Shown here one piece after another: positions 42,112 to 56,126 of a DNA stretch of 64,000 nt. The translations under genes and the position numbers were made by a program. Every line of letters begins with the position of its first letter. The stretch's first letter is position 1. Origin of the DNA: a virus; the IMG/VR virus record IMGVR_UViG_3300032246_002821, positions 96,001 through 160,000 of that record. One strand, written 5' to 3'. The notes under the pieces are model-generated. The model did no database searches and had not been told where the DNA came from. It saw nothing but the letters and a program-made list of their open reading frames with translations.

Positions 42112-43020
42112 ATGATGCAACCCGTATTTCCAGATTTTAAATTCATGATAAATGCTTTAAATCGCGATCTGGAAAAGAGTATATTTGGTAAGATACCTTT
42201 CGTCATACCCAAGAGTTATACGGTGGTGCTGGGTCGCATAGGTGATCTGGAGATCCGGCTGGCACAGACTCGTAAAGAGATCAAGCAAGCACAGAAACTC
42301 AGGTATCGTATATTCTTCAAAGAGCAAGGTGCCATCGCCACATTAGAGGCGATGATGAAACAGAGAGACATAGATCCATATGATGCATATTGTGATCATC
42401 TACTGGTGGTGGATACGAAGTATCCTAGAAAGAAGATGCCAGGAGTTAAAGAACTTTATAAAGAACAAGTGGTAGGCACCTATCGCCTACTCAGACAAGA
42501 TGTAGCAGAAAAGTATTCGGGTTTCTACAGCCAAACAGAGTTTGATGTAGCGGCCTTGATCCAGCGACACCCAGGCAAGCGTTTCTTAGAGCTAGGGCGT
42601 AGCTGCGTTGATAGCGCATACCGCGACAAACGCACCATAGAACTATTGTGGCGTGGCATCTGGTGGTATGTGAACGAGTGTAAGATAGATGCCTTGTTCG
42701 GCTGTGCCAGTTTCGAAGGCACAGATGTTAAAAAATTGTCTGAACAACTGAGCTTGCTACAAGATGCTGCCAGTGCTGCACCTGAATGGCAAACCCAGGC
42801 ACATCGTTCGGATTATGACAACACAGATAGGGTGACAGATTATGATGCTAAAAAAGTGTTGCATCAGTTGCCCACACTGATAAAAGGTTATATGCGCTGT
42901 GGTGCCAGGTTCGGCACAGGCGCTGTGATAGATAGAGAATTCAATACCACCGATGTGCTAGTGGTATTGCCTGTCACAGACATCACACCCAGATATCGTG
43001 AACACTTTACCATGCAGTGA
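42112..43020 (+). CDS. olsB: Ornithine-acyl-ACP N-acyltransferase (OlsB-like GNAT)
   Basis: AQKLRYRIF, DPYDAYCDHLLV, VGTYRLL, FYSQTEFD, LELGRSCV..AYR, LLWRGI, LFGCASF, LIKGYMRCGA, IDREFNTTDVLVVL. Confidence 0.9.
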   Translation: MMQPVFPDFKFMINALNRDLEKSIFGKIPFVIPKSYTVVLGRIGDLEIRLAQTRKEIKQAQKLRYRIFFKEQGAIATLEAMMKQRDIDPYDAYCDHLLVVDTKYPRKKMPGVKELYKEQVVGTYRLLRQDVAEKYSGFYSQTEFDVAALIQRHPGKRFLELGRSCVDSAYRDKRTIELLWRGIWWYVNECKIDALFGCASFEGTDVKKLSEQLSLLQDAASAAPEWQTQAHRSDYDNTDRVTDYDAKKVLHQLPTLIKGYMRCGARFGTGAVIDREFNTTDVLVVLPVTDITPRYREHFTMQ

Positions 43021-43043
43021 AAAAATATTTTTAATATCAGTGA

Positions 43044-43061
43044 TTGTAACACGATTGTAAT
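43044..43061 (+). promoter_or_regulatory. Second Pho-box-like repeat TTGTAAC-ACGA-TTGTAAT
   Basis: Same heptamers and 11-nt period as 42053-42070. Confidence 0.6.
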
Positions 43062-43126
43062 ATTGCCGGTCTTAAATATTTGTGGTAGATGGTCTACCGC
43101 TTTTATTTTTTCCCAGGGGAAACAAA

Positions 43127-43441
43127 ATGAATCTTGATATGGTTGAACACGGTCTAGTGGTTAGTGTTAGTTTTGCGGAAGCAGACGATTTCGACAATGG
43201 TCCTGTTCTGGCAGCTATCAATGCTCTTGTAGAAGCATTGAAAGATTGTGCAGAAGTTAGTGTAAGCATCAGCAGCGAATATGTTGATGATAATGAAGAA
43301 GACTTAGTCCAGGAAGATGCAGATGATGAATTCGCTGATGATCAAGAAGATGATGAAGCAGATGAATCAGAACATGATGCAGAAGATGCATCAGAAGATA
43401 CAGATGCTGATGCAGAACACAAAGAAGATGACTTGCACTAA
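43127..43441 (+). CDS. Small highly acidic protein
   Basis: Likely start MNLDM after CAGGGGA; D/E-rich C-terminal half. Confidence 0.7.
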   Translation: MNLDMVEHGLVVSVSFAEADDFDNGPVLAAINALVEALKDCAEVSVSISSEYVDDNEEDLVQEDADDEFADDQEDDEADESEHDAEDASEDTDADAEHKEDDLH

Positions 43442-43467
43442 CAGCGTGATTTGAACTCGACAAATCC

Positions 43468-43497
43468 AGAGCAGTATGTTATACTGCTCTTTTTTTT
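43468..43497 (+). terminator. Intrinsic terminator
   Basis: AGAGCAGTAT-GTT-ATACTGCTCT followed by a T run. Confidence 0.85.
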
Positions 43498-43511
43498 GGT
43501 AAATAGCAGAC

Positions 43512-44285
43512 ATGAAACAATACAAAAGCATATTCATCAGCGACGTACACCTGGGCACCAAAGGCAGCAAAGCCGAACTATTACTGGCATTCCTACGAGA
43601 AGTAGAATGTGAAAACCTGTTCCTGGTGGGAGACATCCTGGACGGTTGGAGGATGAAGAAAAACTGGTACTGGAACGAACACCACAGCACAGTGGTGCAG
43701 AAGATACTCAGGATGGCTCGTAAAGGCACAAAAGTTTATTATATCCCTGGCAATCACGACGATTTTATGCGTGAATTCTTGGAATATAATTTCGGTAGCA
43801 TAGAGCTGCACAACGAAATGATTTATACAGGCGTCAATGGCAATCAATACATTGTGATACATGGTGACAAGTTCGATATCGTGACACTGAATGCCAAATG
43901 GCTAGCACACATCGGGGACTGGGCCTATACAGCTCTATTGGATCTCAACACAACATTGCATTGGGTAATGCACAAGCTAAAGTTGCCCTATTGGAGCCTG
44001 AGCAAATGGGCCAAGAACCAGGTCAAGCAGGCTGTCAGCTTTGTAGGAGATTATGAAACCAGTCTGGTGAATTATGCCAGGTTGAAAAAAGCAGACGGCA
44101 TCATATGTGGACACATCCACAGTGCCCGGATAGGAATGATTAACGATATAGAATACATGAACTCAGGCGACTGGGTGGAGAGTTGCACGGCCCTGGTTGA
44201 ACATACCGATGGTCTCTGGGAGATAATTACTTGGACAACAGACACTGATGTGGTTATTGATACTACTGGCAGTCAAGATAGGTGA
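43512..44285 (+). CDS. plcP: LpxH-family metallophosphoesterase, PlcP-type phospholipase C
   Basis: SDVHLG, LFLVGDILDGW, W...HSTVVQKIL, YIPGNHD, IHGDKFD, CGHIH, NSGDWVESCTAL; lies upstream of a GT4 gene as in plcP-agt operons. Confidence 0.75.
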   Translation: MKQYKSIFISDVHLGTKGSKAELLLAFLREVECENLFLVGDILDGWRMKKNWYWNEHHSTVVQKILRMARKGTKVYYIPGNHDDFMREFLEYNFGSIELHNEMIYTGVNGNQYIVIHGDKFDIVTLNAKWLAHIGDWAYTALLDLNTTLHWVMHKLKLPYWSLSKWAKNQVKQAVSFVGDYETSLVNYARLKKADGIICGHIHSARIGMINDIEYMNSGDWVESCTALVEHTDGLWEIITWTTDTDVVIDTTGSQDR

Positions 44286-44481
44286 TCCTGCAGATGTTCC
44301 TGGTCGTGTGACCCTGGAATTTCCCACAGAGCAAGCCTGTCAGGCCAGTTTGAAAACAATGACCTATTGGTTGAAATTCGATAGTTTCAAAGTCACAGGA
44401 GCCTGCAAAAGAAATGAAAATAACACTGGTAACAGACACCTGGAAACCCAGCATAAATGGGGTAGTGACAACACTAACTAA
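44248..44481 (+). CDS. Small hypothetical protein
   Basis: Bridges plcP and the GT4 gene with overlaps. Confidence 0.45.
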   Translation: MWLLILLAVKIGDPADVPGRVTLEFPTEQACQASLKTMTYWLKFDSFKVTGACKRNENNTGNRHLETQHKWGSDNTN

Positions 44482-45424
44482 CACCGTACAGCATCTCATA
44501 CAGCAGGGTCATGATGTACAGATCATAGAGCCTGGCCAGTTTCACACTGTAGGTGCACCTGGATATGCGGAAGTCAGACTCAGCTGGAACCTGTGGCAAG
44601 TGGGCCGGATGATCGAACAGTTCGATCCTGATGCCATACACATCGCCACAGAAGGTCCACTGGGATTAGCAGCCAGATGGTACTGCAAGGTGGAAAAGCG
44701 TAGCATACCACACAACACCAGCTATCACACCAAGTTTCCTGAATATCTCTATCAGCATTATCACATACCGGAAAGCTGGACCTATCGCTGTATGCGGGTG
44801 TTCCACAAGTTCAGCACCCGTGTGCTGGTGACCAATCAGGATATGATGACCGATCTCGGTGAACGTGGTTTTGAAAATCTCAGCATCTGGAATCGTGGTG
44901 TGGATCGTGAGCTATATCATCCTGATCGTCGTCGTAGGCTCAGCTATCGCAGGCCCATAATACTGTGTGTTAGCCGTGTCAGTAAAGAAAAAGGACTGGA
45001 CGACTTCTGCAGTCTACGTGTCAAAGGCACCAAAGTACTTGTGGGAGATGGACCTATACTTCCGGAATTGAAAAGACGTTATCCAGATGTGGTATTCGCA
45101 GGTGCCAAGACAGGTACTGCACTGGCTGAATACTATGCTGCCGCGGATGTATTCGTGTTTCCCAGCCAGACCGATACTTTCGGTGTGGTGATGTTGGAAA
45201 GTATAGCGTCAGGTACACCTGTGGCTGCTTACCCTGTGACAGGTCCCCGAGACGTGGTGATAAATGACGTCAACGGTTACATGGATTCAGACTTGACTGT
45301 TGCTGTGGAACGTGCTATGTTATGTGATAGAGTGGCGGTCAGGAACAGCAGCGAGCAATACGACTGGGCAGCTTGCACCGAAACTTTTGTAAAAAATCTG
45401 AAAATAATCGAAAAAAATAGTTGA
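44414..45424 (+). CDS. GT4 glycosyltransferase, Agt-like diacylglycerol glycosyltransferase
   Basis: LVTDTWKPSINGVVTTL, IHIATEGPLG, SYHTKFPEY, RGVD, VSRVSKEK, VFPSQTDTFGVVMLESIASGTPVAAYPVTGP. Confidence 0.85.
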   Translation: MKITLVTDTWKPSINGVVTTLTNTVQHLIQQGHDVQIIEPGQFHTVGAPGYAEVRLSWNLWQVGRMIEQFDPDAIHIATEGPLGLAARWYCKVEKRSIPHNTSYHTKFPEYLYQHYHIPESWTYRCMRVFHKFSTRVLVTNQDMMTDLGERGFENLSIWNRGVDRELYHPDRRRRLSYRRPIILCVSRVSKEKGLDDFCSLRVKGTKVLVGDGPILPELKRRYPDVVFAGAKTGTALAEYYAAADVFVFPSQTDTFGVVMLESIASGTPVAAYPVTGPRDVVINDVNGYMDSDLTVAVERAMLCDRVAVRNSSEQYDWAACTETFVKNLKIIEKNS

Positions 45425-45450
45425 CATCGTCTGACGATAGTGTATAAATA
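45421..45450 (+). promoter_or_regulatory. Composite promoter: TTGACA-N16-TATAAA overlapping a T4 late TATAAATA (45443-45450)
   Basis: Direct sequence match; heads the tRNA region. Confidence 0.7.
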
Positions 45451-45479
45451 GATAGTAAGTTAAACAAACGGAAAAGAAT

Positions 45480-45557
45480 ATGTTTATGTCGCAAGAACCA
45501 AAATCACCCATTTGTAACTGGTATGGTCGTCATACCTGTGGGGTCCTTGTGGCGTGA
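45480..45557 (+). CDS. Putative attenuator leader peptide MFMSQEPKSPICNWYGRHTCGVLVA
   Basis: 25-codon uORF between the promoter and terminator; its 3' end overlaps the antiterminator strand. Confidence 0.6.
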   Translation: MFMSQEPKSPICNWYGRHTCGVLVA

Positions 45558-45612
45558 TGTGATCACACATCAATAGTTTACAAGAACCCCGGTGTCAAAC
45601 CCGGGGTTTTTT
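45540..45612 (+). terminator. Alternative terminator/antiterminator pair
   Basis: Terminator AACCCCGG (45585-92) / CCGGGGTT (45601-08) plus T run; GGGGTCCTTGT (45540-50) pairs 10 of 11 with ACAAGAACCCC (45580-90). Confidence 0.8.
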
Positions 45613-45614
45613 GT

Positions 45615-45745
45615 TGGCAGGCAGTTGCTCCCTAAACATAAGAGCAACCTCCGACTGGTACTTGAGCCGAATGGCTGAATAGGTGGTTTCCAGCGGAGCA
45701 GGAGAGATTGTCTCTCCACAGATACATTTGTGTGTATCTGTAAAG
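45615..45745 (+). ncRNA. Multi-hairpin structured segment
   Basis: Stems GTTGCTC/GAGCAAC, AGCC/GGCT, GGAGAGA/TCTCTCC, CAGATACA/TGTATCTG. Confidence 0.4.
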
Positions 45746-45755
45746 TGACAATCAA

Positions 45756-45832
45756 CCGCCCTTAGATAACGCTGGCTATATCACTACCCTTTCAAGGTAG
45801 AGTAACGGGATCGACACCCGTAGGGCGGACCA
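45756..45832 (+). tRNA. tRNA-Glu(TTC)
   Basis: CCGCCCT/AGGGCGG acceptor, CTACC-CTTTCAA-GGTAG, encoded CCA. Confidence 0.88.
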
Positions 45833-45838
45833 GTTAAA

Positions 45839-45913
45839 GGACCAGTAGTTCAGAGGGAGAACAACCGACTCTTAATCGGTGTGTCGCAGGTTCGATCCCT
45901 GCCTGGTCTGCCA
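45839..45913 (+). tRNA. tRNA-Lys(CTT)
   Basis: ACCGA-CTCTTAA-TCGGT, TTCGA T-loop, CCA. Confidence 0.93.
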
Positions 45914-45964
45914 ATATTGACTTTATCAGTGACATTGTATAAAATCAAAGAAAAGGACAATGTT

Positions 45965-46672
45965 ATGGATATATTTTGGAGTGTGGCAGAATGTGCCAGC
46001 ATACCACATATAAGTTATGAAGAACCCAGGCCGGTTTTGGCAGAAATATCAAAAACCATTCCTGAGTTCCAAAATCCAAAAAACCGTATAACCAGCTGCC
46101 CTGCTTTCCGTGACAGTTGTAAAAACACCTATAGTTTACACGTACCCATAGAGTATGAATTGACTTATGCTAATAACGACATCAGCACCACAATGTGGGA
46201 CAGAGAATTTTTTACAGATGTGGTCACAGTCAGAGATTTCAAATATCCCAACTGGACCAGTATGCAGTTCAAATACATATTTGTTGCAGAGGGAGATCTG
46301 GAAATAGAAGTGCTGCCTTGTTTCCTGACTAGCAACAGTTTCACAGACAATGCAGACATCATACCTGGCCGGATGAACATTGGCAAATGGTTCAGACCTG
46401 TGGAATGTGCGTTCGTAGTTAAGTCAGGCGACAGGACCATAACATTCAACCAGGGCGATGCATACAGTTTTGTCAGGTTTTTGACTGATGAAAAGATCCG
46501 TTTACGTAGGTTTTTCATGACACCCGAATTGAATCACATCACCAGCAGCAACATAAGCGCCAGAGATTACAAACGCAGATTGAATCCGCTGAGTTATTTT
46601 TACAATCTGTACGAACGCAGCCATATGCACAGCAAAGTGCTAAAAGAAGTAAAAAATAACCTGATGGAATGA
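45965..46672 (+). CDS. Hypothetical protein (beta-rich)
   Basis: Likely start MDIFW after AAGGA; promoter TTGACT-N17-TAAAAT at 45917-45945. Confidence 0.65.
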   Translation: MDIFWSVAECASIPHISYEEPRPVLAEISKTIPEFQNPKNRITSCPAFRDSCKNTYSLHVPIEYELTYANNDISTTMWDREFFTDVVTVRDFKYPNWTSMQFKYIFVAEGDLEIEVLPCFLTSNSFTDNADIIPGRMNIGKWFRPVECAFVVKSGDRTITFNQGDAYSFVRFLTDEKIRLRRFFMTPELNHITSSNISARDYKRRLNPLSYFYNLYERSHMHSKVLKEVKNNLME

Positions 46673-46814
46673 GTTGTGGGTGGAGGTAACCCTCAGTGGA
46701 GCAGGCCACTCAGAAACCATCCTGCTGAGTAGGATCCATCACAGGATCTGGGCAAGGGCGATCATAAGCCAGTGTGGCAGCGGTAGAGGGGGCTGGTCAC
46801 ACACTAAATATCCG

Positions 46815-47123
46815 ATGCGTATAGCCGAGATATTGACAGAATTGGATTTCATGGGCAGTCCTTGCACCAAAGATTGCAGTGGACACCAGGCAGGTTATAT
46901 GTGGAGCCTGAACAAGGGCGGCAAGGTTGCCAACAGCTGGAGCAACAGTTTCAACAACGGTGCTGCCATAGGTCACAAACAGGCCACACAGCGTCCACAG
47001 GGCGGAGGTAAACGTGCTGGTTATACCAGCCAGACTCCAGGTGCTATGAGACGCAGGAATCAGAGATTGGCTGCACAACAGGCTGCTCAGGCAGCGGCAG
47101 CACAACAACCACCACAAGTTTAA
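46815..47123 (+). CDS. Small CTS-bearing protein (CTKDCSGH motif)
   Basis: CTAAATA upstream; starts MRIAEILTE; the ORF track extends it to 46674. Confidence 0.6.
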   Translation: MRIAEILTELDFMGSPCTKDCSGHQAGYMWSLNKGGKVANSWSNSFNNGAAIGHKQATQRPQGGGKRAGYTSQTPGAMRRRNQRLAAQQAAQAAAAQQPPQV

Positions 47124-47133
47124 AACTTTATAT

Positions 47134-47208
47134 GTAGGGATAGTTTAATAGGCAAAATCTTGGTCTCCAAAACCAAAGTTCCCAGATCGTTGCTGGGTCC
47201 CTATGCCA
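47134..47208 (+). tRNA. tRNA-Trp(CCA)
   Basis: TTGGT-CTCCAAA-ACCAA; GTAGGGA/TCCCTAT acceptor; non-canonical T-loop ATCGTTG; CCA. Confidence 0.85.
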
Positions 47209-47377
47209 TTACACTGTTACAAACCCTCCAAGTGATAGCGATCTTGTCATAGGTTTTGTAACATTTTCACTTGGGCAGGCCTGCTAAACTATGATCTGCC
47301 TCCGCCACACACGAAACGCAGGATGGGCTGTGTGTGCCAGGCTGTGGAGTGCCTGAACAAATACTCCACACTAATTT
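47209..47377 (+). ncRNA. Candidate structured RNA with pseudoknot potential
   Basis: TGTTACAAA/TTTGTAACA, CCAAGTGA/TCACTTGG, GGCAG/CTGCC, CACACAC/GTGTGTG, TGTGGAGT/ACTCCACA. Confidence 0.45.
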
Positions 47378-47451
47378 GGTCTGGTGTCGGAGTGGTTACG
47401 GAGCGGTCTGCAAAACCGCCTACGAGAGTTCGATTCTCTCCCAGACCTCCA
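47378..47451 (+). tRNA. tRNA-Cys(GCA)
   Basis: GCGGT-CTGCAAA-ACCGC; U73; CCA. Confidence 0.93.
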
Positions 47452-47455
47452 ATCT

Positions 47456-47531
47456 GCTTAGATAGCTCAGCTGGTAGAACACTGCGCTGAAGACGCAGGT
47501 GTCAGCGGTTCGATCCCGTTTCTAAGCACCA
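47456..47531 (+). tRNA. tRNA-Phe(GAA)
   Basis: CTGCG-CTGAAGA-CGCAG; CCA. Confidence 0.95.
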
Positions 47532-47532
47532 T

Positions 47533-47609
47533 ACACCCTTAGCTCAGCTGGATAGAGCATCTGACTACGAATCAGAAGGCCGGGAGTTCGAATCTCTCAG
47601 GGTGTGCCA
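47533..47609 (+). tRNA. tRNA-Arg(ACG)
   Basis: TCTGA-CTACGAA-TCAGA; CCA. Confidence 0.95.
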
Positions 47610-47669
47610 AAAATAAGTATTGACATATATGTTAGATGTAGTAATATGACATATACAGGAGATTAGGCG

Positions 47670-48095
47670 ATGATGGAATGTTTGATCTTGGGCGACAGCA
47701 TCGGACGCGGCATCAGCAGTGTCATGCGCGATTGTGTTCAAATCACAGAAATCGGCATCAATACTGATAACTGGTACAAGAAATATCACGATCGTCCCAT
47801 ATTCGATATGCAACAATATCGGTATGTGGTGGTCAGTCTGGGATCCAACGACATCGCAGATAGCAGTGCCACCATGCGCCGCATACGCAAGAAATTCAGT
47901 GCTGCCAAAGTCATATGGGTATTGCCCAGCGATCAGGTCAAAGCGCCACAGCGAGCCATAGTGGAAAATGTAGCTGCAGAATTTGGCGATTGGGTTTTAA
48001 GTATCACTGACCGGGTGGGGGCGGACAAGGTGCACCCACCCACAGTGGAAGCATATGAAAAGATAGCAAAAAACATAAAGGACAGTGTAAAATGA
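47670..48095 (+). CDS. SGNH/GDSL hydrolase-like protein
   Basis: LILGDSIGRG, VSLGSND, DKVHP; promoter TTGACA-N16-TAATAT at 47620-47647. Confidence 0.8.
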   Translation: MMECLILGDSIGRGISSVMRDCVQITEIGINTDNWYKKYHDRPIFDMQQYRYVVVSLGSNDIADSSATMRRIRKKFSAAKVIWVLPSDQVKAPQRAIVENVAAEFGDWVLSITDRVGADKVHPPTVEAYEKIAKNIKDSVK

Positions 48096-48427
48096 TCAAG
48101 CGTATTGTTATGGCTACCTGTTTGATTGCATCACCAGCTGTTGCGGAAACCTGGGCCACTGCTGATTGCACGTTGGCCAACGGTGGCAAGATCCGCTACG
48201 CGGTACACGACAGCAAAGGTTTTATCTCTTATGATGGAGAAGGACCCTATGAGATGTTTACCAAACGCGATGGTAATATGGGCATTGTCACACACATCGG
48301 CAACCGTGGTAACACAGTGTTGGCAGTGGATCTGGATAGCGGCCGAGGGTATATTATCACCAAGTTTGATAATGGTCACACCAGAGAAATGAATGTCAGT
48401 TGCCGTTTGGGCGTCACAGAAAAATAA
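48092..48427 (+). CDS. Small secreted/periplasmic beta-rich protein
   Basis: Signal peptide MIKRIVMATCLIASPAVA. Confidence 0.7.
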   Translation: MIKRIVMATCLIASPAVAETWATADCTLANGGKIRYAVHDSKGFISYDGEGPYEMFTKRDGNMGIVTHIGNRGNTVLAVDLDSGRGYIITKFDNGHTREMNVSCRLGVTEK

Positions 48428-48431
48428 CCGG

Positions 48432-48459
48432 TTGACAACTATCTTAACTGTGTTATATT
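48432..48459 (+). promoter_or_regulatory. Sigma70-type promoter TTGACA-N11-TGTGT-TATATT
   Basis: Upstream of tRNA-Asp. Confidence 0.75.
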
Positions 48460-48474
48460 CATAATATAGAGTTT

Positions 48475-48551
48475 GGTCAAGTAGCTCAGTTGGTTAGAGT
48501 GCCGGCCTGTCACGCCGGAGGTCGCGGGTTCGAGCCCCGTCTTGATCGCCA
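48475..48551 (+). tRNA. tRNA-Asp(GTC)
   Basis: CCGGC-CTGTCAC-GCCGG; G73; CCA. Confidence 0.95.
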
Positions 48552-48555
48552 AATT

Positions 48556-48790
48556 AGAGTCGCTGGATTACTATAGAGACGGTCACCGCGGTCTGTCTCT
48601 TGTGCGTACCAGTGCTGGAGGCCCGTCAAACCAGCATAAACAAACGTGGCAGGAATTGGCAAGGGGAACTACTCGGCAGTCGCATCGCAAGATGTCGCAA
48701 CGGAGCCCCTTGCCGTCGAGGCCAGAGGGATTGTAGGTGGACCTGTATTATATGCCCTTGGGGTGTTGTGACTGGGCTTGTAACCTTCAT
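48556..48790 (+). ncRNA. Candidate multi-helix ncRNA (~230 nt)
   Basis: AGAGACGG/CTGTCTCT, TGCTGG/CCAGCA, GGCAAGGGG/CCCCTTGCC, GCATC-GCAA-GATGT, terminal AGTCGC/GTGACT. Confidence 0.55.
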
Positions 48791-48799
48791 AAATTTTAA

Positions 48800-48875
48800 G
48801 AACCCATAGCTCAGTAGGTAGAGCACCTGACTTTTAATCAGGGTGTCGCCGGTTCGACCCCGGCTGGGTTCACCA
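48800..48875 (+). tRNA. tRNA-Lys(TTT)
   Basis: CCTGA-CTTTTAA-TCAGG; CCA. Confidence 0.95.
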
Positions 48876-48876
48876 A

Positions 48877-49107
48877 TTATGCAAACTTGCTGGCTATGCT
48901 GATAGCAGTTATCAACGCAGCTTTAACGGCCATATCGTCAGCTTCTTCGTTCAAACGATCGGTTGCGATAAGGTCTTCCATAAGTTCAGCTGCTTCTTCA
49001 GGTGATAATGCGCCTGAGTTGCGTTGCTTCTGGATGTCTAGGGCCATCTTAGCGCGAGTTTCTGCCCAACCTGATCCGCAGTGTGCTAGTTCTTGTAGTG
49101 ATGCCAT
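48877..49107 (-). CDS. Small helical hypothetical protein
   Basis: Coupled to the lipoprotein gene. Confidence 0.65.
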   Translation of the reverse strand: MASLQELAHCGSGWAETRAKMALDIQKQRNSGALSPEEAAELMEDLIATDRLNEEADDMAVKAALITAISIASKFA

Positions 49108-49499
49108 TAGAATCTCCCTAAAACGGCTTTGCTTGATAGTTCAGCTTGTTTAACTAATATGTCTTTCTTAATCCGGCAATAGGCAGCACTGGGTTCTTTT
49201 TCTTTGCTACGGTCTGCCCATTCGTTCACTGTCTTTTGCATAGGAGCGATCAGTTCCAGCACATCGTGTTGCAGATAGCCTTTGCTCTCGCTGTACAGTT
49301 CAAACCATTGAAGTTCTTTTTGTATTTGTACAGCTTGAAAGTTTTGTGTATCTTCACAGTTGATGTTAACAATCAGTTGTCTGGCTGTTATGATGCTCCT
49401 GGATTGGTTGTCATCCCAGAAGCTGGGCACGAATGTTGCTACCGTTGCATTGCAACCGGCTAATACTAAGAAACTCAATACCGCGATGATTTTTTGCAT
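49107..49499 (-). CDS. Lipoprotein
   Basis: Lipobox LAGC at residues 13-16; CTAAATA upstream. Confidence 0.75.
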   Translation of the reverse strand: MQKIIAVLSFLVLAGCNATVATFVPSFWDDNQSRSIITARQLIVNINCEDTQNFQAVQIQKELQWFELYSESKGYLQHDVLELIAPMQKTVNEWADRSKEKEPSAAYCRIKKDILVKQAELSSKAVLGRF

Positions 49500-49530
49500 A
49501 CAGTATTTAGTTTTTGATAACTACCATAAC

Positions 49531-49606
49531 GCCCAATTAGCTCAGATGGTAGAGCAGTTGATTAGTAATCATCAGGTCGGCGGTTCGAATCCGTCATTGG
49601 GCACCA
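49531..49606 (+). tRNA. tRNA-Thr(AGT)
   Basis: GCCCAAT/ATTGGGC acceptor; GTTGA-TTAGTAA-TCATC anticodon arm (one mismatch); CCA. Confidence 0.85.
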
Positions 49607-49621
49607 TTATTAAGGTTCGCT

Positions 49622-50740
49622 ATGTTCGTAAAATGCATCAGGATGGAAGCCTATTTCGGAGCCAGTTATAACTTCGAAAGATTGAAGGAAAATATACAAA
49701 AAGATCTGGCACAGACAAGAGCAGCTGGTACTGAACCCTATTTCTTCCTCAGTTATTGTTGGGAGAATTTTCCTGAATTCTATTGGTACGACAATGTCAC
49801 TCAAAATATCCGTAGCATATTGAAAGACCTGGGCATAACACATTATAAATTCGTGTTTCCCACCAGTTTTTTACACAATAGATATCCAGTGTACACTGGC
49901 CAGATAGACCAGTCGGATATGATCTTCCTGGAGTTTTTTGCTCTATACAGTTTCCATAAGATATTCGGAGATCAAAAGAAATATCGCAGCTGGAATTATT
50001 CGGGAGAGGTGTTGGCCAATCCTGCCTGGAACAGTGACAGCGATCGCGCCCTGTTGCTATTGGGCAAGATAGCCAAATTGAACCGTATGCCATTGCTGGC
50101 CGAATTCTACAGAGCCAATAACCTGTCGCGCATAGACTGGAGTTTGTATCTGAACGATAACATCAAAGCCGATGCCAGGCATCTGGCCCCAGAATTTACA
50201 GATGAGGAATATGAAATATTCATATCCCAGATGACCAAGAGACTGGATCCCATAGACGTGCAGATGCAGGAACGCAGCAGCCATTACTGGGGTTTTCCTT
50301 ATGATGTAAACTTATACAAAAACACTTGCCTGAGTGTCATAAGCGAAACCAACTTCATGTATAACCAGACAGTGTGGGTTACAGAAAAAACCTATCGTGC
50401 CATAGCCAATAGGCATCCTTTCGTCATGGCTGCGCCTCCTGGTAGTTTGAAATACATCAAGACCCTGGGTTTCAAGACTTTCGAAGAATATATGCAGATA
50501 ACAGATTATGATGATATAGAATATGACAAGCAAAGATTGGGCAGTATAATGACCAATACCATGTATTTTCTTGATACTAAACACACAAATCTAGAAGAGA
50601 TAAATGCAGATGTGGAGCATAACTACCAGAACCTTATAGATTTCGTCGATAGGGAAATTTTAAAACTTGACAAAGTGCTGGATTCAGTGCATAATAGACA
50701 GGATAAAGAAACAAGTTGGTCCTTATTGGCCCAGATGTAA
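49622..50740 (+). CDS. Glycosyltransferase-like protein (SEK/TEK family, copy 5)
   Basis: LSVISET...WVTEKTYRAIANRHPF...GFKTFEEY...DYD. Confidence 0.55.
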   Translation: MFVKCIRMEAYFGASYNFERLKENIQKDLAQTRAAGTEPYFFLSYCWENFPEFYWYDNVTQNIRSILKDLGITHYKFVFPTSFLHNRYPVYTGQIDQSDMIFLEFFALYSFHKIFGDQKKYRSWNYSGEVLANPAWNSDSDRALLLLGKIAKLNRMPLLAEFYRANNLSRIDWSLYLNDNIKADARHLAPEFTDEEYEIFISQMTKRLDPIDVQMQERSSHYWGFPYDVNLYKNTCLSVISETNFMYNQTVWVTEKTYRAIANRHPFVMAAPPGSLKYIKTLGFKTFEEYMQITDYDDIEYDKQRLGSIMTNTMYFLDTKHTNLEEINADVEHNYQNLIDFVDREILKLDKVLDSVHNRQDKETSWSLLAQM

Positions 50741-50742
50741 TT

Positions 50743-50817
50743 GCGGTTGTAGCTCAGTGGTAGAGCGTCACGTTGCCAACGTGAATGTCGTCGGTTCGAC
50801 CCCGATCAGCCGCTCCA
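50743..50817 (+). tRNA. tRNA-Gly(GCC)
   Basis: TCACG-TTGCCAA-CGTGA; U73; CCA; promoter TTGACA-N17-CATAAT at 50667-50695. Confidence 0.95.
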
Positions 50818-50821
50818 ATTT

Positions 50822-50895
50822 TACTGCTGTCGGTGTTGATGGGAAACACAGATGGACAACACTAGGACACCGTTCGAATCGGAGCAGCAGTACCT
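50822..50895 (+). pseudogene. tRNA-like element with a stub anticodon arm
   Basis: TACTGCTG/CAGCAGTA acceptor, GTGT/ACAC D-stem, TTCGAAT T-loop; ends ACCT rather than CCA. Confidence 0.55.
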
Positions 50896-50900
50896 GATTA

Positions 50901-50974
50901 GCGGGCTTGGTATAGTGGTATTATGACAGCCTTCCAAGCTGACGAGACGGGTTCGATTCCCGTAGCCCGCTCCA
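50901..50974 (+). tRNA. tRNA-Gly(TCC)
   Basis: ACAGC-CTTCCAA-GCTGA; U73; CCA. Confidence 0.95.
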
Positions 50975-50980
50975 AAATTT

Positions 50981-51054
50981 GCTGTCTTGGTGTAATGGAA
51001 GCACACGAGTTTGTGGAACTCGTAGCACAGGATCGATACCTGTAGACAGTGCCA
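50981..51054 (+). tRNA. tRNA-His(GTG)
   Basis: CGAGT-TTGTGGA-ACTCG; CCA; no encoded G-1, G at position 73. Confidence 0.88.
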
Positions 51055-51059
51055 TATAA

Positions 51060-51142
51060 GGGGCGGAAGTATCAAGGTGATACCGTGGACTGTAAATCCA
51101 CCGCTTATAGCACGCCTGGTTCGATTCCAGGACGCCCCACCA
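51060..51142 (+). tRNA. tRNA-Tyr(GTA)
   Basis: GTGGA-CTGTAAA-TCCAC; long variable region; CCA. Confidence 0.93.
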
Positions 51143-51182
51143 CTACACACTAAATAAAAGGTCAATTGAACAAAGGTCATCA

Positions 51183-51827
51183 ATGAAAGGCAAGATAGCC
51201 TTATTCCTGCACCAGCCCAAATGCTCGGTACAATCGGGCAATGGAATTATGCAGGCATTGCATCCAGATTATCAGTTCAAGATCTTCACAAAACATCGAG
51301 TGGAAAAAGATTTCTTCGATGATGTGGATATGATCGCTGTGCCAGGAGGACTGGGAGACAGCGACAGCTATGCCAGTCTGATGCGTGAAAACGCTGGTCG
51401 CATACAGGACTTTGTTGCTAAAGGTGGCAGGTACTTGGGTATCTGTATGGGTGCTTACTGGGCAGGATATCACTATCTAGACATACTAGACGGCGTCCGA
51501 GCCTATCAATATATCACACGCCCCAACACAGACACTCGTAGACCACACGCCAAAGCCATAGACGTGGATTGGCTGGGACAACCAGAGAAGATGTACTTCT
51601 ATGATGGCCCAGCATTGGTGGGCGATAAAAACAAGTTTACCACCGTCAGCACATACGTAAACGGTGACGCCATGGCCATATATCAGGATCGTATAGGACT
51701 GATAGGTTGCCATCCTGAGGCAAATCTGCACTGGTACCAGGCATATCCCTATATGCTCAAACACTGGCATAAAGGTGCTCATTACAGTTTGTTGAAAGAT
51801 TTTGTTGACAAACTGATGCTTCAGTAG
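51183..51827 (+). CDS. Class I glutamine amidotransferase-like protein (BPL_N family)
   Basis: IAVPGG, FVAKGGRYLGICMGAYWAG, FYDGP, IGCHPE. Confidence 0.85.
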   Translation: MKGKIALFLHQPKCSVQSGNGIMQALHPDYQFKIFTKHRVEKDFFDDVDMIAVPGGLGDSDSYASLMRENAGRIQDFVAKGGRYLGICMGAYWAGYHYLDILDGVRAYQYITRPNTDTRRPHAKAIDVDWLGQPEKMYFYDGPALVGDKNKFTTVSTYVNGDAMAIYQDRIGLIGCHPEANLHWYQAYPYMLKHWHKGAHYSLLKDFVDKLMLQ

Positions 51828-51842
51828 TATTATAAGGAATAT

Positions 51843-51919
51843 TGCGGGGTAGAGAAGTGGTCATCTCGTTAGGCTCATAACCTGAAGATCGGAGGTTCGA
51901 ATCCTCCCCACCGCAACCA
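51843..51919 (+). tRNA. tRNA-Met(CAT), initiator-like
   Basis: TGCGGGG 5' end, TTAGG-CTCATAA-CCTGA; CCA; promoter TTGACA-N17-TATTAT at 51805-51833. Confidence 0.85.
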
Positions 51920-51924
51920 AGTTA

Positions 51925-52002
51925 CTCGGTGTAGCGCAGTCTGGCTAGCGCATCTGGTTTGGGACCAGAGGGTCGGGAGTTCGAATCTCTCCACCGAGAC
52001 CA
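51925..52002 (+). tRNA. tRNA-Pro(TGG)
   Basis: TCTGG-TTTGGGA-CCAGA; CCA. Confidence 0.95.
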
Positions 52003-53171
52003 AATAAAGCAGCATACTCAGGCATCATTTGGGCAAAGTTTTCGCCTCGTAGTTGGTCCAGTTTGCTGACGGTAGTTATAAAACTATCCTTTTTGCTAGC
52101 CCAGTCAGTGGGTTCATTTGCTAAAAATCTCAGTGTGCAATCACGCTGATCGATCCAGCTTTGAACGTACTGACTGGGCTTGTGTGCAAGCAGCTTATCA
52201 CGCACAGCCTGTTTTATATCTGGTGGCAGATAGCATATATTTGCGTCAGCCTTGTCTGTGACGCGGTTTGTAAATCCAATGATGTAGCCCAGATCGCTGA
52301 AAAACTCGAATGCTTCTGGAATATAAAATACATTATGGCTCATTGTACAGTATTGCACTTGAACGGACAGATTATCATATTTGGCAAAATCTGTAGTGTA
52401 GCGTTGTAGATTCTCCAGCACGGTCGCCCACTGGCTACCAGCCCTGATATAGTCATTGTGAGCACCTACACCATCTATGCTATATCCCAATGACCCACTT
52501 TTGAATTTGCTCATTTTATCGGCTAAGTCAGGTTTGTATATGGTACCATTGGTGTGCATCTGTACGTCTTGCGTGGGTATACCACTGTCCAAGATCTTAT
52601 ATGTCAATGGATGTAGCAATGGTTCTCCACCATACAAGTCAAAGAATATAATACTGTCGTGCCATTCAGCCAGAGTATCTTCTAACTCAGTGTTGTTGAT
52701 ATAGCTGGTTTCATAACTGACAAACTTTTGTAACCAGGTTTTGAACGGCACAGCTGGTTGTTCTAAATTGTAAGCGTCTTTGTACCATTGAGTGCTGCTA
52801 TATGGATTACAACTGCGACAGGCACAGTTGCATTTGTTGCCGTGCTTTAATATCAAGATCCTGGGTTGATCAGGCAATGACTCTACATCTGCAAGCAGGC
52901 GATTGTATTTTTGCCTGACGCTTTGGTTGCCAGCTTTTTCGTTGTTCCAGCAGTTGGAACAATAAGGGTTGGGAATTCCCTTAGCCAGCGTATTGAGAAA
53001 TTTACTTCTGCTTTCACTATTCCAGGCCCGTTTCAATGAACCTGTGTCCAATGTAATAGGTTTACCACTGCTGTCTTTGAGATAAAGGCTGTTGTAATTA
53101 CATGGAGTCACTCGTCCACTCATATCCAGGTTTAGAGTTATTTCTGCTAATTTGCACTTGATGGGTTCCAT
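51945..53171 (-). CDS. Radical SAM protein with N-terminal SPASM/twitch-like domain
   Basis: GRVTPCC-like motif, CSNCW, GNKCNCACRSC cluster motif, YGGEP, HTNGT; likely start MEPIK at 53171. Confidence 0.85.
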   Translation of the reverse strand: MEPIKCKLAEITLNLDMSGRVTPCNYNSLYLKDSSGKPITLDTGSLKRAWNSESRSKFLNTLAKGIPNPYCSNCWNNEKAGNQSVRQKYNRLLADVESLPDQPRILILKHGNKCNCACRSCNPYSSTQWYKDAYNLEQPAVPFKTWLQKFVSYETSYINNTELEDTLAEWHDSIIFFDLYGGEPLLHPLTYKILDSGIPTQDVQMHTNGTIYKPDLADKMSKFKSGSLGYSIDGVGAHNDYIRAGSQWATVLENLQRYTTDFAKYDNLSVQVQYCTMSHNVFYIPEAFEFFSDLGYIIGFTNRVTDKADANICYLPPDIKQAVRDKLLAHKPSQYVQSWIDQRDCTLRFLANEPTDWASKKDSFITTVSKLDQLRGENFAQMMPEYAALFGLGGEIRTPDPLVPNQMR

Positions 53172-53187
53172 ACTGATATATATTAAT

Positions 53188-54240
53188 ATGACCGTTTTTC
53201 CCGATAAAAATCTGTCAGGATTAGTATGTACAGAACCGTTCCGTACGGTCAATATAGATCCCGTGGGCAATGTACAACTCTGTGGATGCAGTGATTGGAT
53301 GCCACAGATAGCCGGCAACATAAACAATGCCAGCTTGCAAGACATACTCAACAGCCCAAAAGCTCAGCTAATGCGTGAGAGCATCAGAGATGGCAGTTAC
53401 AGATATTGTAACGCAGATAAATGTGGTGTTATAAACAACAAGTGGTTGATACCCCACACAGATGCCCCTGGTCATAATCTCGATCCAGAATGGCGGTTAT
53501 ACAGGAAAGAAAGCAGTAAAAAAATACCTACCAAATATTTTATAGCTGGTGATAAGACCTGTAATCTCAGTTGTCCCAGTTGTAGAAACACAGTGATTAA
53601 AAATACCATTGGCGACACTGGTAACAATATCAGAGTGATGAATCTGTTAAACCAGAACGTGTTTGCCGGCAAAAGCCATTTGCCTATTGAAATAATGTTG
53701 AGCACTAGCGGAGAGATTTTTGCCAGCAAATTCCTTTTGGAATTTTTACAAACTTTCCCTATAAACAATTACCCAAATGTTATTTTTCACTTACAAACCA
53801 ATGGTTTGTTGTTAAAGAAAAACTGGCATTTACTTGCTAATATACATAAAAATATCAAAAGTATCACGGTGACTACTGATGGTTGCACCGCAGATACATA
53901 TGAACATCTGCGTCGTGGAGGTAGATTTACAGATATACTGGACAATCTCAAGTATATGCAACAATTAAAACAACAGCATAACTTCGTGACACACAATCGT
54001 ATGGTAGTCCAGCTGGCCAATTACCAGCAGATAACAGATTTTTATCACTGGAGCAAGCAACTGGGATTCGATACTGTGGAATACAGCAGATTGCAGGATT
54101 GGAAAACATATACCGGTCCGGAATTCGCAGAACTCGATGTATTGAACCCGGAACATCAAGCATATAATGCTGCTACGGATAGTATCAAGGAACTATTATC
54201 AGAGGGTTCTAGTGTGGTACTTTTGGGGTTTAGTATCTAG
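53188..54240 (+). CDS. Radical SAM protein with N-terminal SPASM/twitch-like domain
   Basis: CTEPF...GNVQLCGC, DKTCNLSCPSC, TSGEIF, QTNG. Confidence 0.85.
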   Translation: MTVFPDKNLSGLVCTEPFRTVNIDPVGNVQLCGCSDWMPQIAGNINNASLQDILNSPKAQLMRESIRDGSYRYCNADKCGVINNKWLIPHTDAPGHNLDPEWRLYRKESSKKIPTKYFIAGDKTCNLSCPSCRNTVIKNTIGDTGNNIRVMNLLNQNVFAGKSHLPIEIMLSTSGEIFASKFLLEFLQTFPINNYPNVIFHLQTNGLLLKKNWHLLANIHKNIKSITVTTDGCTADTYEHLRRGGRFTDILDNLKYMQQLKQQHNFVTHNRMVVQLANYQQITDFYHWSKQLGFDTVEYSRLQDWKTYTGPEFAELDVLNPEHQAYNAATDSIKELLSEGSSVVLLGFSI

Positions 54241-54317
54241 GCACCCGTAGCTCAGCGGAACAGAGCTTCGCGCTTCGAACGCGACGGTCGGGAGTTCGAA
54301 TCTCTCCGGGTGTGCCA
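54241..54317 (+). tRNA. tRNA-Arg(TCG)
   Basis: TCGCG-CTTCGAA-CGCGA; CCA. Confidence 0.92.
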
Positions 54318-54327
54318 AAAATAGTTG

Positions 54328-54355
54328 TTGACATATGTTAACAATCATATATACT
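54328..54355 (+). promoter_or_regulatory. Sigma70-type promoter TTGACA-N16-TATACT
   Basis: Upstream of the Asn-to-Ser tRNA run. Confidence 0.7.
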
Positions 54356-54372
54356 GATGATATAAAGTTTAT

Positions 54373-54449
54373 TCCGAGTCGGTCACAAGGTGGGACAGCA
54401 GACTGTTAATCTGTTCATCAGGTTGGTTCGATTCCAACACTCGGAGCCA
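54373..54449 (+). tRNA. tRNA-Asn(GTT)
   Basis: GCAGA-CTGTTAA-TCTGT; G73; CCA. Confidence 0.92.
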
Positions 54450-54452
54450 AGT

Positions 54453-54525
54453 TTAGATGTGCGAGGAAGGCGATATGTTTGAACAACTGCTCGCCGCAGG
54501 TTCGACTCCTGCCGCATCTAATCTA
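54453..54525 (+). ncRNA. tRNA-like element: acceptor stem and T-arm with one irregular hairpin replacing the D and anticodon arms
   Basis: TTAGATG/CATCTAA, GCAGG-TTCGACT-CCTGC, GCGAG/CTCGC; no CCA. Confidence 0.55.
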
Positions 54526-54531
54526 ATAAAT

Positions 54532-54608
54532 GCCCCAGTAGTCCAATTGGTAGAGGCACTGGTTTTAGGTACCAGGTGGTGGGGGTTCGAGTCCCTCCTG
54601 GGGCACCA
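54532..54608 (+). tRNA. tRNA-Leu(TAG) with short variable loop
   Basis: CTGGT-TTTAGGT-ACCAG; 5-nt variable loop; A73; CCA. Confidence 0.88.
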
Positions 54609-54615
54609 CTAACGA

Positions 54616-54691
54616 TGGCGTGTAGCTCAGCTGGAAGAGCATTCGACCGATAATCGAAAGGTCACTGGTTCGAGACCAGTCACGCCAACCA
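54616..54691 (+). tRNA. tRNA-Ile(GAT)
   Basis: TTCGA-CCGATAA-TCGAA; CCA. Confidence 0.94.
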
Positions 54692-54697
54692 AGATAT

Positions 54698-54774
54698 GCT
54701 AGCAGGGCGGTAGTGGAATCGCGCCCGCCTCATAAGCGGGTCCAAAGCTGGATCGAAGCCAGCTGTTAGCACCA
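54698..54774 (+). tRNA. tRNA(CAT), elongator Met or Ile2
   Basis: CCCGC-CTCATAA-GCGGG; CCA; identity cannot be resolved by eye. Confidence 0.8.
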
Positions 54775-54782
54775 ATAGTAGT

Positions 54783-54856
54783 TGGGATGTCGTCTAAAGG
54801 TAGGACAACGGATTTTGATTCCGTTTATCGTGGTTCGAATCCATGCATCCCAGCCA
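54783..54856 (+). tRNA. tRNA-Gln(TTG)
   Basis: ACGGA-TTTTGAT-TCCGT; U1-A72; G73; CCA. Confidence 0.94.
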
Positions 54857-54872
54857 AGCTATATATGATAAA

Positions 54873-54962
54873 GGAGAGGTGGTCGAGTGGTTGATGGCTC
54901 TGGTCTTGAAAACCAGCGAGGGTTCAAGCCCTCCGTGGGTTCGAATCCCACCCTCTCCGCCA
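54873..54962 (+). tRNA. tRNA-Ser(TGA)
   Basis: CTGGT-CTTGAAA-ACCAG; long variable arm; G73; CCA. Confidence 0.96.
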
Positions 54963-54973
54963 ACAAACGATAT

Positions 54974-55693
54974 TTGATAGAATATCTGGGAGGCTGCAAG
55001 GGCGAGCTGTTTTGCAGATTCCTCAACAAAGATACTTTTATCAAAGATATATACAATAGATTTCCCAGTTTTATCAAAGATGAGAATGATTTGCGTAAAA
55101 TCAGTCAATTAGCAAATACAAAAGGTTTTAATAAAGATTACGATGTATCATATTTCCGACGGTATTTCGACCAATATGATGCTGGGAAAAAATTTTTAAG
55201 ATGTCATGACATAGAAAATATTTTTCCTTTAATGGAATTATTTACAAAACACAATATCCAAGTAGTCAAAATCAAATTCCATAAAGAAAGTTACGCTAAT
55301 ATTTTTATCGAAGGAACTTTAAAAAATATAGATAGGCCAGCGGAGACGCACTATTATTACACAATGGATAAGGAGTTGCTGGACAATGATGTGCCATTGA
55401 ATGATACACATAGATGCGAGTGGTTATATAAAAGATTGAAAGGCCAAGACGATCAAAGATCCAGACACTTTCAAAGTTATGACCACTTCAATAAAAAGTT
55501 ATTCGATAAACACAAAAAAATAATATATTATGAGGATATATTTTTGAAATTAGATCTAGAACACGAAATATTTCAAGATGTGGATACTGAGGATTACAAA
55601 AATTTTGTTTCTCAGACCTGGCTACCTGAAAAGATAATTCTTTTCGGACAAGAGTGGTATCCCAAGGATTACGGTTATGAAGCACATATATAA
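54974..55693 (+). CDS. AT-rich hypothetical protein (start uncertain), possibly sulfotransferase-like
   Basis: The frame is open from inside tRNA-Ser; the first start codon after the tRNA is TTG at 54974 (LIEYLGGCKGE). Confidence 0.55.
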   Translation: MIEYLGGCKGELFCRFLNKDTFIKDIYNRFPSFIKDENDLRKISQLANTKGFNKDYDVSYFRRYFDQYDAGKKFLRCHDIENIFPLMELFTKHNIQVVKIKFHKESYANIFIEGTLKNIDRPAETHYYYTMDKELLDNDVPLNDTHRCEWLYKRLKGQDDQRSRHFQSYDHFNKKLFDKHKKIIYYEDIFLKLDLEHEIFQDVDTEDYKNFVSQTWLPEKIILFGQEWYPKDYGYEAHI

Positions 55694-55958
55694 ATTTTTC
55701 TATAACAGTTATCACACAGACAAGACCTGTTTCTATCTGGAGATGTTAGCTGCCGTCATAACCATCTGCGCCAGCCTGGCATTGGCTGTTACTGCCAGAC
55801 ACCCGGATATGACAGTGATCTATCCGGGTTTTTTCGTGGGCAGTTGCATCAGCGCCTACACCAATATCAGACGCGACCTAGCTTGGCCAGCAATCTTGAC
55901 TTTTTATTTCGCCAGTGTAAATATCTATGGCTGGTTCAGGGCCATGGGCTACATTTAA
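55677..55958 (+). CDS. Small multi-TM membrane protein (paralogue of 22974-23264)
   Basis: Three hydrophobic segments. Confidence 0.65.
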   Translation: MKHIYKFFYNSYHTDKTCFYLEMLAAVITICASLALAVTARHPDMTVIYPGFFVGSCISAYTNIRRDLAWPAILTFYFASVNIYGWFRAMGYI

Positions 55959-56126
55959 GGAAAGTTAGATGAGTTATAGCATCCTCAAGATGATCGAATT
56001 TAGCCTGGATTACCTGCTAAGGAACGAACTAAGAGAGGATGTGGAAATACCCGAGGGTCCTGAAGCCAAAGCGATCATTATAGGATATGTTCGCAGACGA
56101 ATATCAGAGATCCAAAAACAGACTAA

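Follow-up and report, generated by a model that had tools for sequence, protein, structure and literature searches.

The leader-peptide attenuators of enterobacteria, which are known from amino acid operons (trpL, hisL, pheL, thrL, leuL, and ilvL) and from pheST, gain their sensitivity through codon runs. T-boxes bind uncharged tRNA directly and need no open reading frame (ORF). Upstream ORFs (uORFs) that sense general ribosome stalling are also known; they are described for Escherichia coli toiL, which lies before topAI-yjhQ (PMC12121999), for Bacillus subtilis vmlR (PMC9226507), and for mef/mel (PMC4335068). Phage tRNA genes, for their part, counter host defenses that target tRNA (PMC10264068, PMC11555353, and PMC11464382). 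The control of phage tRNA gene expression has been little studied, and the papers that we found treat the tRNAs themselves. Here we describe positions 45421-45913 of a 64,000-nucleotide (nt) stretch of DNA (the window; positions 96,001 to 160,000 of IMG/VR record IMGVR_UViG_3300032246_002821), which is part of a 183-kb phage contig from an uncultivated lake virus that is estimated to represent about half of a jumbo-phage genome. Judging from the sequence, this head of a tRNA region probably encodes a ribosome-mediated (leader-peptide) transcription attenuator with a leader that samples many codon classes.

Read in the sequence, the locus comprises a promoter, a leader ORF, a terminator, a structured RNA, tRNA-Glu, and tRNA-Lys. 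An initial annotation, made from the letters alone, had placed a promoter, a 25-codon uORF, a terminator, and an antiterminator here and had noted that the leader uses every amino acid except Asp; all four elements are in the sequence exactly where it put them, and the count of 19 kinds of amino acid is confirmed. The whole element spans ~190 nt and is self-contained. Its features and the first products behind it are as follows, with L082 and L125 denoting the two contigs that form a clade with the window.

45421..45448, plus strand: sigma-70-type promoter, read in the sequence, with the -35 hexamer TTGACA at 45421-26, a 16-nt spacer, and the -10 hexamer TATAAA at 45443-48
45470..45472, plus strand: weak Shine-Dalgarno element (GGA), 7 nt before the start codon
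45480..45557, plus strand: leader ORF, with 25 codons at 45480-45554 and the stop codon TGA at 45555-57; 19 kinds of amino acid, no Asp
45488..45499, plus strand: segment 1 (codons 3-7), which pairs with segment 2 as an anti-antiterminator in the minimum-free-energy fold
45520..45536, plus strand: small hairpin within the ORF (codons 14-19), found by folding; its stem is kept and its loop varies in L082 and L125
45540..45553, plus strand: segment 2 (codons 21-25), of which 45540-50 is the 5' strand of the antiterminator and 45542-53 pairs alternatively with segment 1
45556..45571, plus strand: hairpin H, found by folding, between the stop codon and segment 3 and beginning inside the stop codon
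45580..45590, plus strand: segment 3, the 3' strand of the antiterminator, which overlaps the 5' arm of the terminator by 6 nt
45585..45612, plus strand: intrinsic terminator, with the stem 45585-92/45601-08, a T run at 45607-12, and a hairpin energy of -15.3 kcal/mol
3' arm of the terminator and U run, plus strand: segment 4, which pairs with segment 3
45619..45755, plus strand: conserved structured RNA, the first product past the terminator, present in 13 contigs and with covarying helices
45756-45832, plus strand: tRNA-Glu(UUC), the first tRNA that read-through would reach
45839-45913, plus strand: tRNA-Lys(CUU), the second tRNA that read-through would reach

Three helices compete in the leader. 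In the antiterminator, 10 of the 11 positions of 45540-50 pair with 45580-90, the single mismatch being C.A; the helix occupies 6 of the 8 nt of the terminator 5' arm, and its own 5' strand sits beneath codons 21-24. The duplex has an energy of -20.3 kcal/mol, compared to -12.2 ± 2.8 kcal/mol in dinucleotide shuffles (p = 0.007). A third helix, unmentioned in the initial annotation, joins 45488-99 (codons 3-7) to 45542-53 and is the minimum-free-energy fold. This duplex between segments 1 and 2 (-22.4 versus -14.4 ± 3.1 kcal/mol in dinucleotide shuffles) reached a p value of 0.02 in the window and of 0.002 in L125, and the fold of the leader as a whole had a z-score of -2.75 relative to shuffles. 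The pairings of segments 1 and 2, of segments 2 and 3 (the antiterminator), and of segments 3 and 4 (the terminator) are mutually exclusive; with the helix 45488-99/45542-53 present, the leader thus has the full set of three competing pairings of a trp attenuator. Hairpin H retains its stem, with loop changes, in L082, L125, and a further contig, L121, and every clade of relatives described below has a hairpin at the same place. When a ribosome footprint was masked in an equilibrium model, masking of the last codons favored the terminator.

We infer the ribosome-dependent steps of the proposed mechanism from this geometry and from established knowledge of leader-peptide attenuators. With no ribosome on the leader, segments 1 and 2 would pair, and segment 3 would stay free to enter the terminator. 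A ribosome at the last codons or at the stop codon would cover segment 2; the terminator would again form, and the transcript would end near 45612. A ribosome held within about codons 2-16 would cover or melt segment 1 and leave segment 2 free, and free segment 2 would capture segment 3 as it emerges, giving the antiterminator. RNA polymerase would then continue into the structured RNA, tRNA-Glu, and tRNA-Lys and probably further into the array. A leader with one or two codons per amino acid would signal that any of many codon classes is being decoded slowly, not how much of a single amino acid is available. Candidate triggers would be the loss of tRNA to host anticodon nucleases, the decay of host tRNA, and general elongation stress, and the response would be more phage tRNA.

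The arrangement of transcription signals in the window gives read-through a role of its own. No promoter-like site was found between the terminator and the structured RNA in the window, either by a consensus scan or by eye; thus, production of the structured RNA and of the first tRNAs relies on read-through in this phage. The next promoter-like site past tRNA-Lys in the consensus scan lies at 45917-45945, and the scan listed no plus-strand terminator between tRNA-Lys and ~52814. Twenty more tRNAs on the same strand follow tRNA-Lys, mixed with ORFs and promoter-like sites. The same consensus scan of the window for promoters and terminators listed neither the leader promoter nor the leader terminator. 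The promoter was missed because the rule of the scan requires a T at the last -10 position; folding shows the terminator clearly. The hexamers of the leader promoter and their spacing are identical in L082, L125, L121, and another contig, L107, and the inferred transcription start lies near 45455. The -10 region reads TATAAATA, which had suggested a T4-type late promoter; this candidate was rejected, as the window has 3 copies of the word versus 2.1 expected and thus shows no enrichment.

Relatives of the element were sought by several routes. A blastn search of the GenBank phage collection gave tRNA matches only; there is thus no cultured relative. Among 80 virus contigs encoding a relative of the glycosyltransferase upstream of the locus, the module was present in the closest one only (L002, the same contig as L082). 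A DNA search of 48 records with a glycosyltransferase homologue likewise gave one close relative with the module, and the sole match to two exact leader patterns was the same relative (L002/L082). Since relatives of the glycosyltransferase mostly occur without the module, the two are not linked. Relatives were collected by means of the conserved core of the structured RNA behind the terminator, which was searched for in virus and metagenome contigs; the invariant core (GACUGGUACUUGAGCC ... GGUGGUUUCCAGC) is found in the window, L082, L125, L121, L107, and L103-L113, and no Rfam family matched the structured RNA at 45619-45755. The search gave 13 distinct members, comprising the window's clade (the window, L082, and L125), L121, L107, and a group of eight that we call clade C. 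A short ORF and a terminator lie just upstream of the structured RNA in all 13, and a same-strand tRNA array lies downstream in every member with enough sequence, whatever lies upstream. The upstream gene varies between clades; the module therefore belongs to the tRNA array. We also examined the regions upstream of the tRNA arrays in five jumbo-phage genomes without the RNA motif. Two of these (G036 and G021) have an ORF of 43 codons, with 20 and 19 kinds of amino acid, respectively, and a terminator 27 and 29 nt past the stop codon.

The positions of the switch are kept across this family while its sequence is not. The gap between the stop codon and the terminator is 26-31 nt in all 13 members despite differing intervening sequence, and G036 and G021 fall within this range. 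A duplex between the last codons plus stop codon and the 5' arm of the terminator, overlapping 9-12 nt of the arm, was significant relative to shuffles in 12 of the 13 members (p ≤ 0.012); the exception is L107 (p = 0.46, 8 of 11 nt). In the distant genomes, the antiterminator duplex gave p values of 0.002 (G036) and 0.022 (G021). In every one of the 13, the upstream strand of the antiterminator has its 5' end 6-28 nt before the stop codon and its 3' end at a point from 2 nt upstream to 3 nt downstream of the first stop-codon base. Read directly, the clades build the same antiterminator helix from different sequences. RNAalifold, applied to clade C, picked the antiterminator as the consensus structure unaided. 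By alignment count, the clade C helix has 13 pairs, 6 of them with changes in both strands, and pairing holds in 85.6% of cells; sliding the partner by 1-3 columns lowered the pairing of the whole structure from 87% to 28-43%. On these alignments, the antiterminator helix is supported by compensatory changes.

The probability of the 19 kinds of amino acid in the 25 residues of the leader is ~4e-4 given the amino acid composition of the phage and 2.5e-4 given windows of its real proteins. Of the 229 short ORFs on the contig, only one has as many as 19 kinds, presumably the leader itself; among the 10 short ORFs that are followed by a terminator on the 183-kb contig, the next most diverse has 15. 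Across the 25 codons, each amino acid is used at most twice and never in tandem; hence, there is no regulatory codon run. All 15 leaders (the 13 members, G036, and G021) exceed the null mean in kinds of amino acid. With the discovery clade left out, the per-clade P values were ~0.45, 0.001, 0.03, and 0.05, so that three of the four clades lie in the upper tail, and combination of the four by Fisher's method gave ~4e-4. After residues were shuffled within alignment columns, the leaders held on average 18.2 ± 0.3 kinds instead of 18.9 (p ~0.01). This suggests that loss of an amino acid at one position is made good at another, as with His, which is at position 2 or at position 9 in different members. 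A near-complete amino acid set is thus a trait of the family.

A search that was blind to ORFs, amino acids, and tRNAs gave an independent view of the design. The pattern joined three elements, namely GGGGTC for the antiterminator core, GACCC for the terminator arm, and GGGTTTTTT for the T run, with a gap after each of the first two. Virus contigs scanned with it gave at least 118 matching stretches, 80 of which were analyzed; all counts from this search are among those matches listed. At 43 loci, two or more tRNAs on the same strand follow within 4 kb, and many of these loci have 10-27. An ORF of 23-63 codons runs through the core at 41 of these 43 loci, and 23 of the 37 distinct tRNA-linked leader peptides hold all 20 amino acids, compared to 1.5 expected (~15-fold). 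As a control, 17 matches were followed by 2 kb or more of sequence that carried no tRNA; such an ORF was present in 4 of them and a set of all 20 amino acids in none. In the 37 tRNA-linked leaders, the GGGGTC core lies in all three reading frames (17:11:9) but always 10-28 nt before the stop codon, and the terminator arm begins 21-35 nt (median, 25 nt) past the stop codon. The 9 nt on either side of the imposed core lay outside the search pattern; these flanks pair with -3.4 kcal/mol within loci versus -1.4 kcal/mol between loci, and none of 5,000 permutations gave a value as low. The use of all frames, the fixed distance to the stop codon, and the pairing of the flanks thus indicate a constraint on the RNA helix and on the end of translation, not on the peptide. 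These results agree with a leader design that is widespread in virus contigs. Apart from poorer leaders of 23 codons (two) and 22 codons (one), the leader in the window, with 19 kinds in 25 codons, is the shortest near-complete leader heading an array among those examined here. As a separate observation, many of the longer leaders (L145, L150, L153, L157, L166, L170, L171, L203, L209, L211, and L221) share the peptide stretch S-Y-D-R-T-P-E shortly before the core, which could reflect an RNA constraint or a nascent-peptide effect.

Several features suggest translation of the leader. Within the window's clade, codon positions 1, 2, and 3 share the variable columns in the ratio 2:4:14 (binomial estimate, ~9e-4), the pairwise ratios of synonymous to nonsynonymous codon changes are 5:5, 8:3, and 7:3, and the length and frame of the ORF are fixed across the window, L082, and L125. 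Clade C keeps the start codon, the frame, and a good AGGA-type ribosome-binding site, and both ORF indels in this clade are multiples of three. GGA occurs within positions -16 to -5 of 39% of the long ORFs of the contig, compared to a background of 11%. The leader peptides matched no family in Pfam or PHROG; an EGF-like match was below threshold and spurious. Between clades, the peptides differ widely in length (23-63 codons) and in sequence.

A number of observations weigh against the attenuator or limit its reach. The leader ribosome-binding site of the window is weak; GGA is at the equivalent place in 12 of the 13 family members and AGGA in most of clade C, and L121 has neither in the interval read. 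Clade C shows no third-position bias (codon-position variation, 14:14:10), and L121, with 16 kinds of amino acid in 31 codons, is unremarkable in composition. The pairing of segments 1 and 2 is significant in the window's clade only (p = 0.002-0.06, compared to p = 0.05-0.76 elsewhere), and no such helix was found when it was sought as a consensus in clade C. Equilibrium folding with a masked ribosome footprint gave modest differences between stall positions, so that the expected direction was weakly shown, and without a ribosome the model leaves the antiterminator partly formed. If the footprint extends ~12 nt beyond the A site, segment 2 stays free only for stalls at codons up to ~16; the sensing part of the leader therefore holds 13 kinds of amino acid, with A, H, L, R, T, and V found only in the last nine codons, and each amino acid occurs just once or twice in the leader. 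Leader codons are not enriched for the anticodons of the array tRNAs (618 matches observed versus 608 expected; z = 1.1), in a comparison for which the arrays are partly incomplete. The family members are related, and counts over them are counts of nonindependent events. Finally, a strong promoter-like site lies behind the terminator and ahead of the structured RNA or array in clade C, L107, and G036; a near-consensus site (TTGACA or TTGATT, 17 nt, TATATT) is found in L105:3975-4030, L107, L110, L112, L113, and L134:425-470. The window's clade and L121 are without a second promoter-like site. Where the second promoter is present, the array is therefore independent of read-through, and read-through can only add to its expression.

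In one alternative, the ORF and its terminator would be a stand-alone small gene, encoding a microprotein or a small RNA and lying with its own promoter beside the array. The pairing between ORF end and terminator would then serve mRNA stability or 3'-end formation and play no regulatory part, and the downstream RNAs would be made by leaky termination or from other promoters. The second promoter-like site in clade C, L107, and G036, which gives the ORF-terminator unit a self-contained look, the purifying selection on the peptide in the window's clade, and the conservation of parts of the peptide in clade C fit such a gene. However, the peptide varies in length and sequence between clades, and the features held in common are the RNA switch, the place of the stop codon, and the amino acid diversity. 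The antiterminator core is used in all three reading frames, and the alternative helix covers most of the terminator 5' arm and covaries. In addition, the peptides match no protein family, and the downstream RNA has no promoter of its own in this phage. We therefore regard a stand-alone small gene as unlikely.

A second alternative accepts a real ribosome-dependent switch but has it gauge only the pace of translation and transcription (ribosome availability or coupling), with the varied composition arising as a by-product, for example of avoided codon runs or of the complex sequence that three overlapping helices demand. The other five reading frames average ~16 kinds of amino acid, which is slightly above null, and part of the diversity thus stems from a complex nucleotide sequence. 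Single codons are weak sensors, part of the diversity sits in the tail of the leader, where a stall should not give read-through, and the match between leader codons and phage tRNA anticodons is no better than synonymous expectation. On the other hand, frame 0 is the richest of the six frames in 12 of the 13 members, by 2-4 kinds, complete sets occur at ~15 times expectation among the matches listed, and the diversity within single sequences exceeds that of column-shuffled ones. A switch that is indifferent to codon identity accordingly seems to us distinctly unlikely.

The remaining alternatives fare worse. An RNA-only switch (a riboswitch or a T-box-like leader that binds tRNA), with the ORF incidental, would suit a module that precedes tRNA genes, and GGUGGU in the conserved downstream RNA faintly resembles a T-box motif; yet a search of 44000-56000 against Rfam gave no family, T-box included, at E ≤ 1, and the ORF, its start, and the position of its stop are kept in every member, with third-position bias in the window's clade, which makes this reading highly improbable. 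We give equally little credence to a dual function in which cis attenuation is joined by a terminated leader RNA or peptide acting in trans: termination would leave a stable structured RNA of ~155 nt, and the trans action reported for rnTrpL and peTrpL of Sinorhizobium (PMC7968998 and PMC7298713) offers a precedent, but nothing points to a target, and the peptide sequences are not conserved across clades.

Taken with the leader-peptide attenuator that we favor, these results bear unevenly on what the initial annotation had proposed. Its core reading of a ribosome-dependent attenuator is supported by an ORF, a helix competition, and a stop-to-terminator spacing that are kept across lineages with unrelated sequences, and its view of a leader that samples many amino acids is borne out by a diversity that recurs far beyond chance in relatives. 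Upstream of the tRNA arrays of relatives, where it had suggested looking, the uORF is conserved, with amino acid diversity above null, and there is covariation, in the form of compensatory antiterminator changes in clade C and locus-specific flank pairing in the wider family. It had also argued from Val and Ala, which it found only in codons 22-25 and for which it saw no tRNA. There is indeed no tRNA for either inside the window, but the argument from placement fails: a tRNA-Ala(tgc) lies on the same contig outside the window, L082 has Ala at codon 16, and both Ala and Val stand in the middle of the peptide in other clades. Its expectation that stalling on "almost any" amino acid would permit read-through is too broad, since by geometry only ~13 kinds (codons to ~16) can free the antiterminator. 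Of the general translation-capacity sensor that it envisaged, the attenuator and the varied leader are thus supported; the "almost any" amino acid, the placement of Val and Ala, and an enrichment of codons for the phage's own tRNAs are not.

The surroundings of the element showed further features. Directly upstream, at 42112-45424, lie three co-oriented genes, for a GNAT acyltransferase (PF13444), a calcineurin-like phosphoesterase (metallophosphoesterase), and a GT4 glycosyltransferase. Downstream, tRNA-Glu(UUC) at 45756-45832 scored 29.7 bits against the Rfam tRNA model (threshold, 29), as a partial match, and a tRNA-Glu(UUC) was called at the equivalent place behind the structured RNA in L125. 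A second conserved noncoding stretch of ~130 nt, at 46672-46801, is ~90% identical to L002:4372-4500, and in L002 it directly adjoins a remnant of tRNA-Glu; the listed TTG ORF at 46674-47123, which runs over this stretch, is probably not real at its 5' end. Comparison of L002:4355-4375 with window positions 45750-46672 showed that L002 is without ~900 nt (the interior of tRNA-Glu, tRNA-Lys(CUU), the promoter-like site, and the ORF 45965-46672) and keeps only two fused halves of the tRNA-Glu acceptor stem. The tRNA region thus reads as one that is undergoing rearrangement between close relatives. The window also has a tRNA-Thr with the anticodon AGT (49531-49606). In related arrays, ARAGORN called tRNAs with the anticodons tca (labeled SeC, 69 nt; L125:10982-11050) and cta (labeled Pyl; L131:8740-8814), which may be suppressor tRNAs.

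Taken more broadly, the family raises a proposal that we consider evenly poised between right and wrong: that large phages from lakes and other habitats run a feedback loop on tRNA supply, in which the leader is a test message for all amino acids, a slow codon flips the antiterminator, and the array is transcribed. This would be the first known attenuator of tRNA genes and the first leader directed at all amino acids. A search of the full-text literature turned up no account of an element of this type ahead of tRNA genes, and PMC10264068 makes no mention of attenuators, leader peptides, terminators, or promoters; an attenuator before tRNA genes is apparently unpublished. If the proposal is correct, many large phages use a short test ORF to gauge how well the infected cell can decode and answer with more tRNA. 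Phage tRNA arrays would then be tied to the defense systems that cut tRNA, and leader-peptide attenuation, a classic mechanism for single amino acids, would gain a form that senses every one. The papers on tRNA as a counterdefense supply a reason to raise the phage tRNA supply when host tRNAs are cut, and they deal with the tRNAs themselves.

Among known systems, the stall-sensing uORFs (PMC12121999 and PMC9226507) are the nearest functional analogues. As in toiL, vmlR, and mef/mel, a short ORF here would report translation stress beyond that of one amino acid and alter downstream expression. Those systems respond to antibiotics, govern resistance or toxin genes, and act partly through Rho or translational attenuation, and none is described with a near-complete amino acid set or with control of tRNA genes. 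With T-boxes, the element shares an alternative terminator and antiterminator that would respond to the state of tRNA; unlike in T-boxes, an ORF and the position of its stop codon are conserved here. In architecture, the element most resembles leaders of the trpL and hisL type: a short ORF lies close to the promoter, the pairings of segments 1 and 2 (in the window's clade), 2 and 3, and 3 and 4 exclude one another, an intrinsic terminator follows, and a ribosome at the end of the ORF would cover the 5' strand of the antiterminator. It departs from them in having an extra hairpin inside the antiterminator loop and, in place of a run of regulatory codons, one or two codons for each of 19 amino acids. 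Moreover, it is encoded by a phage, and what it would control is a set of tRNAs and a noncoding RNA rather than biosynthetic enzymes or a synthetase.

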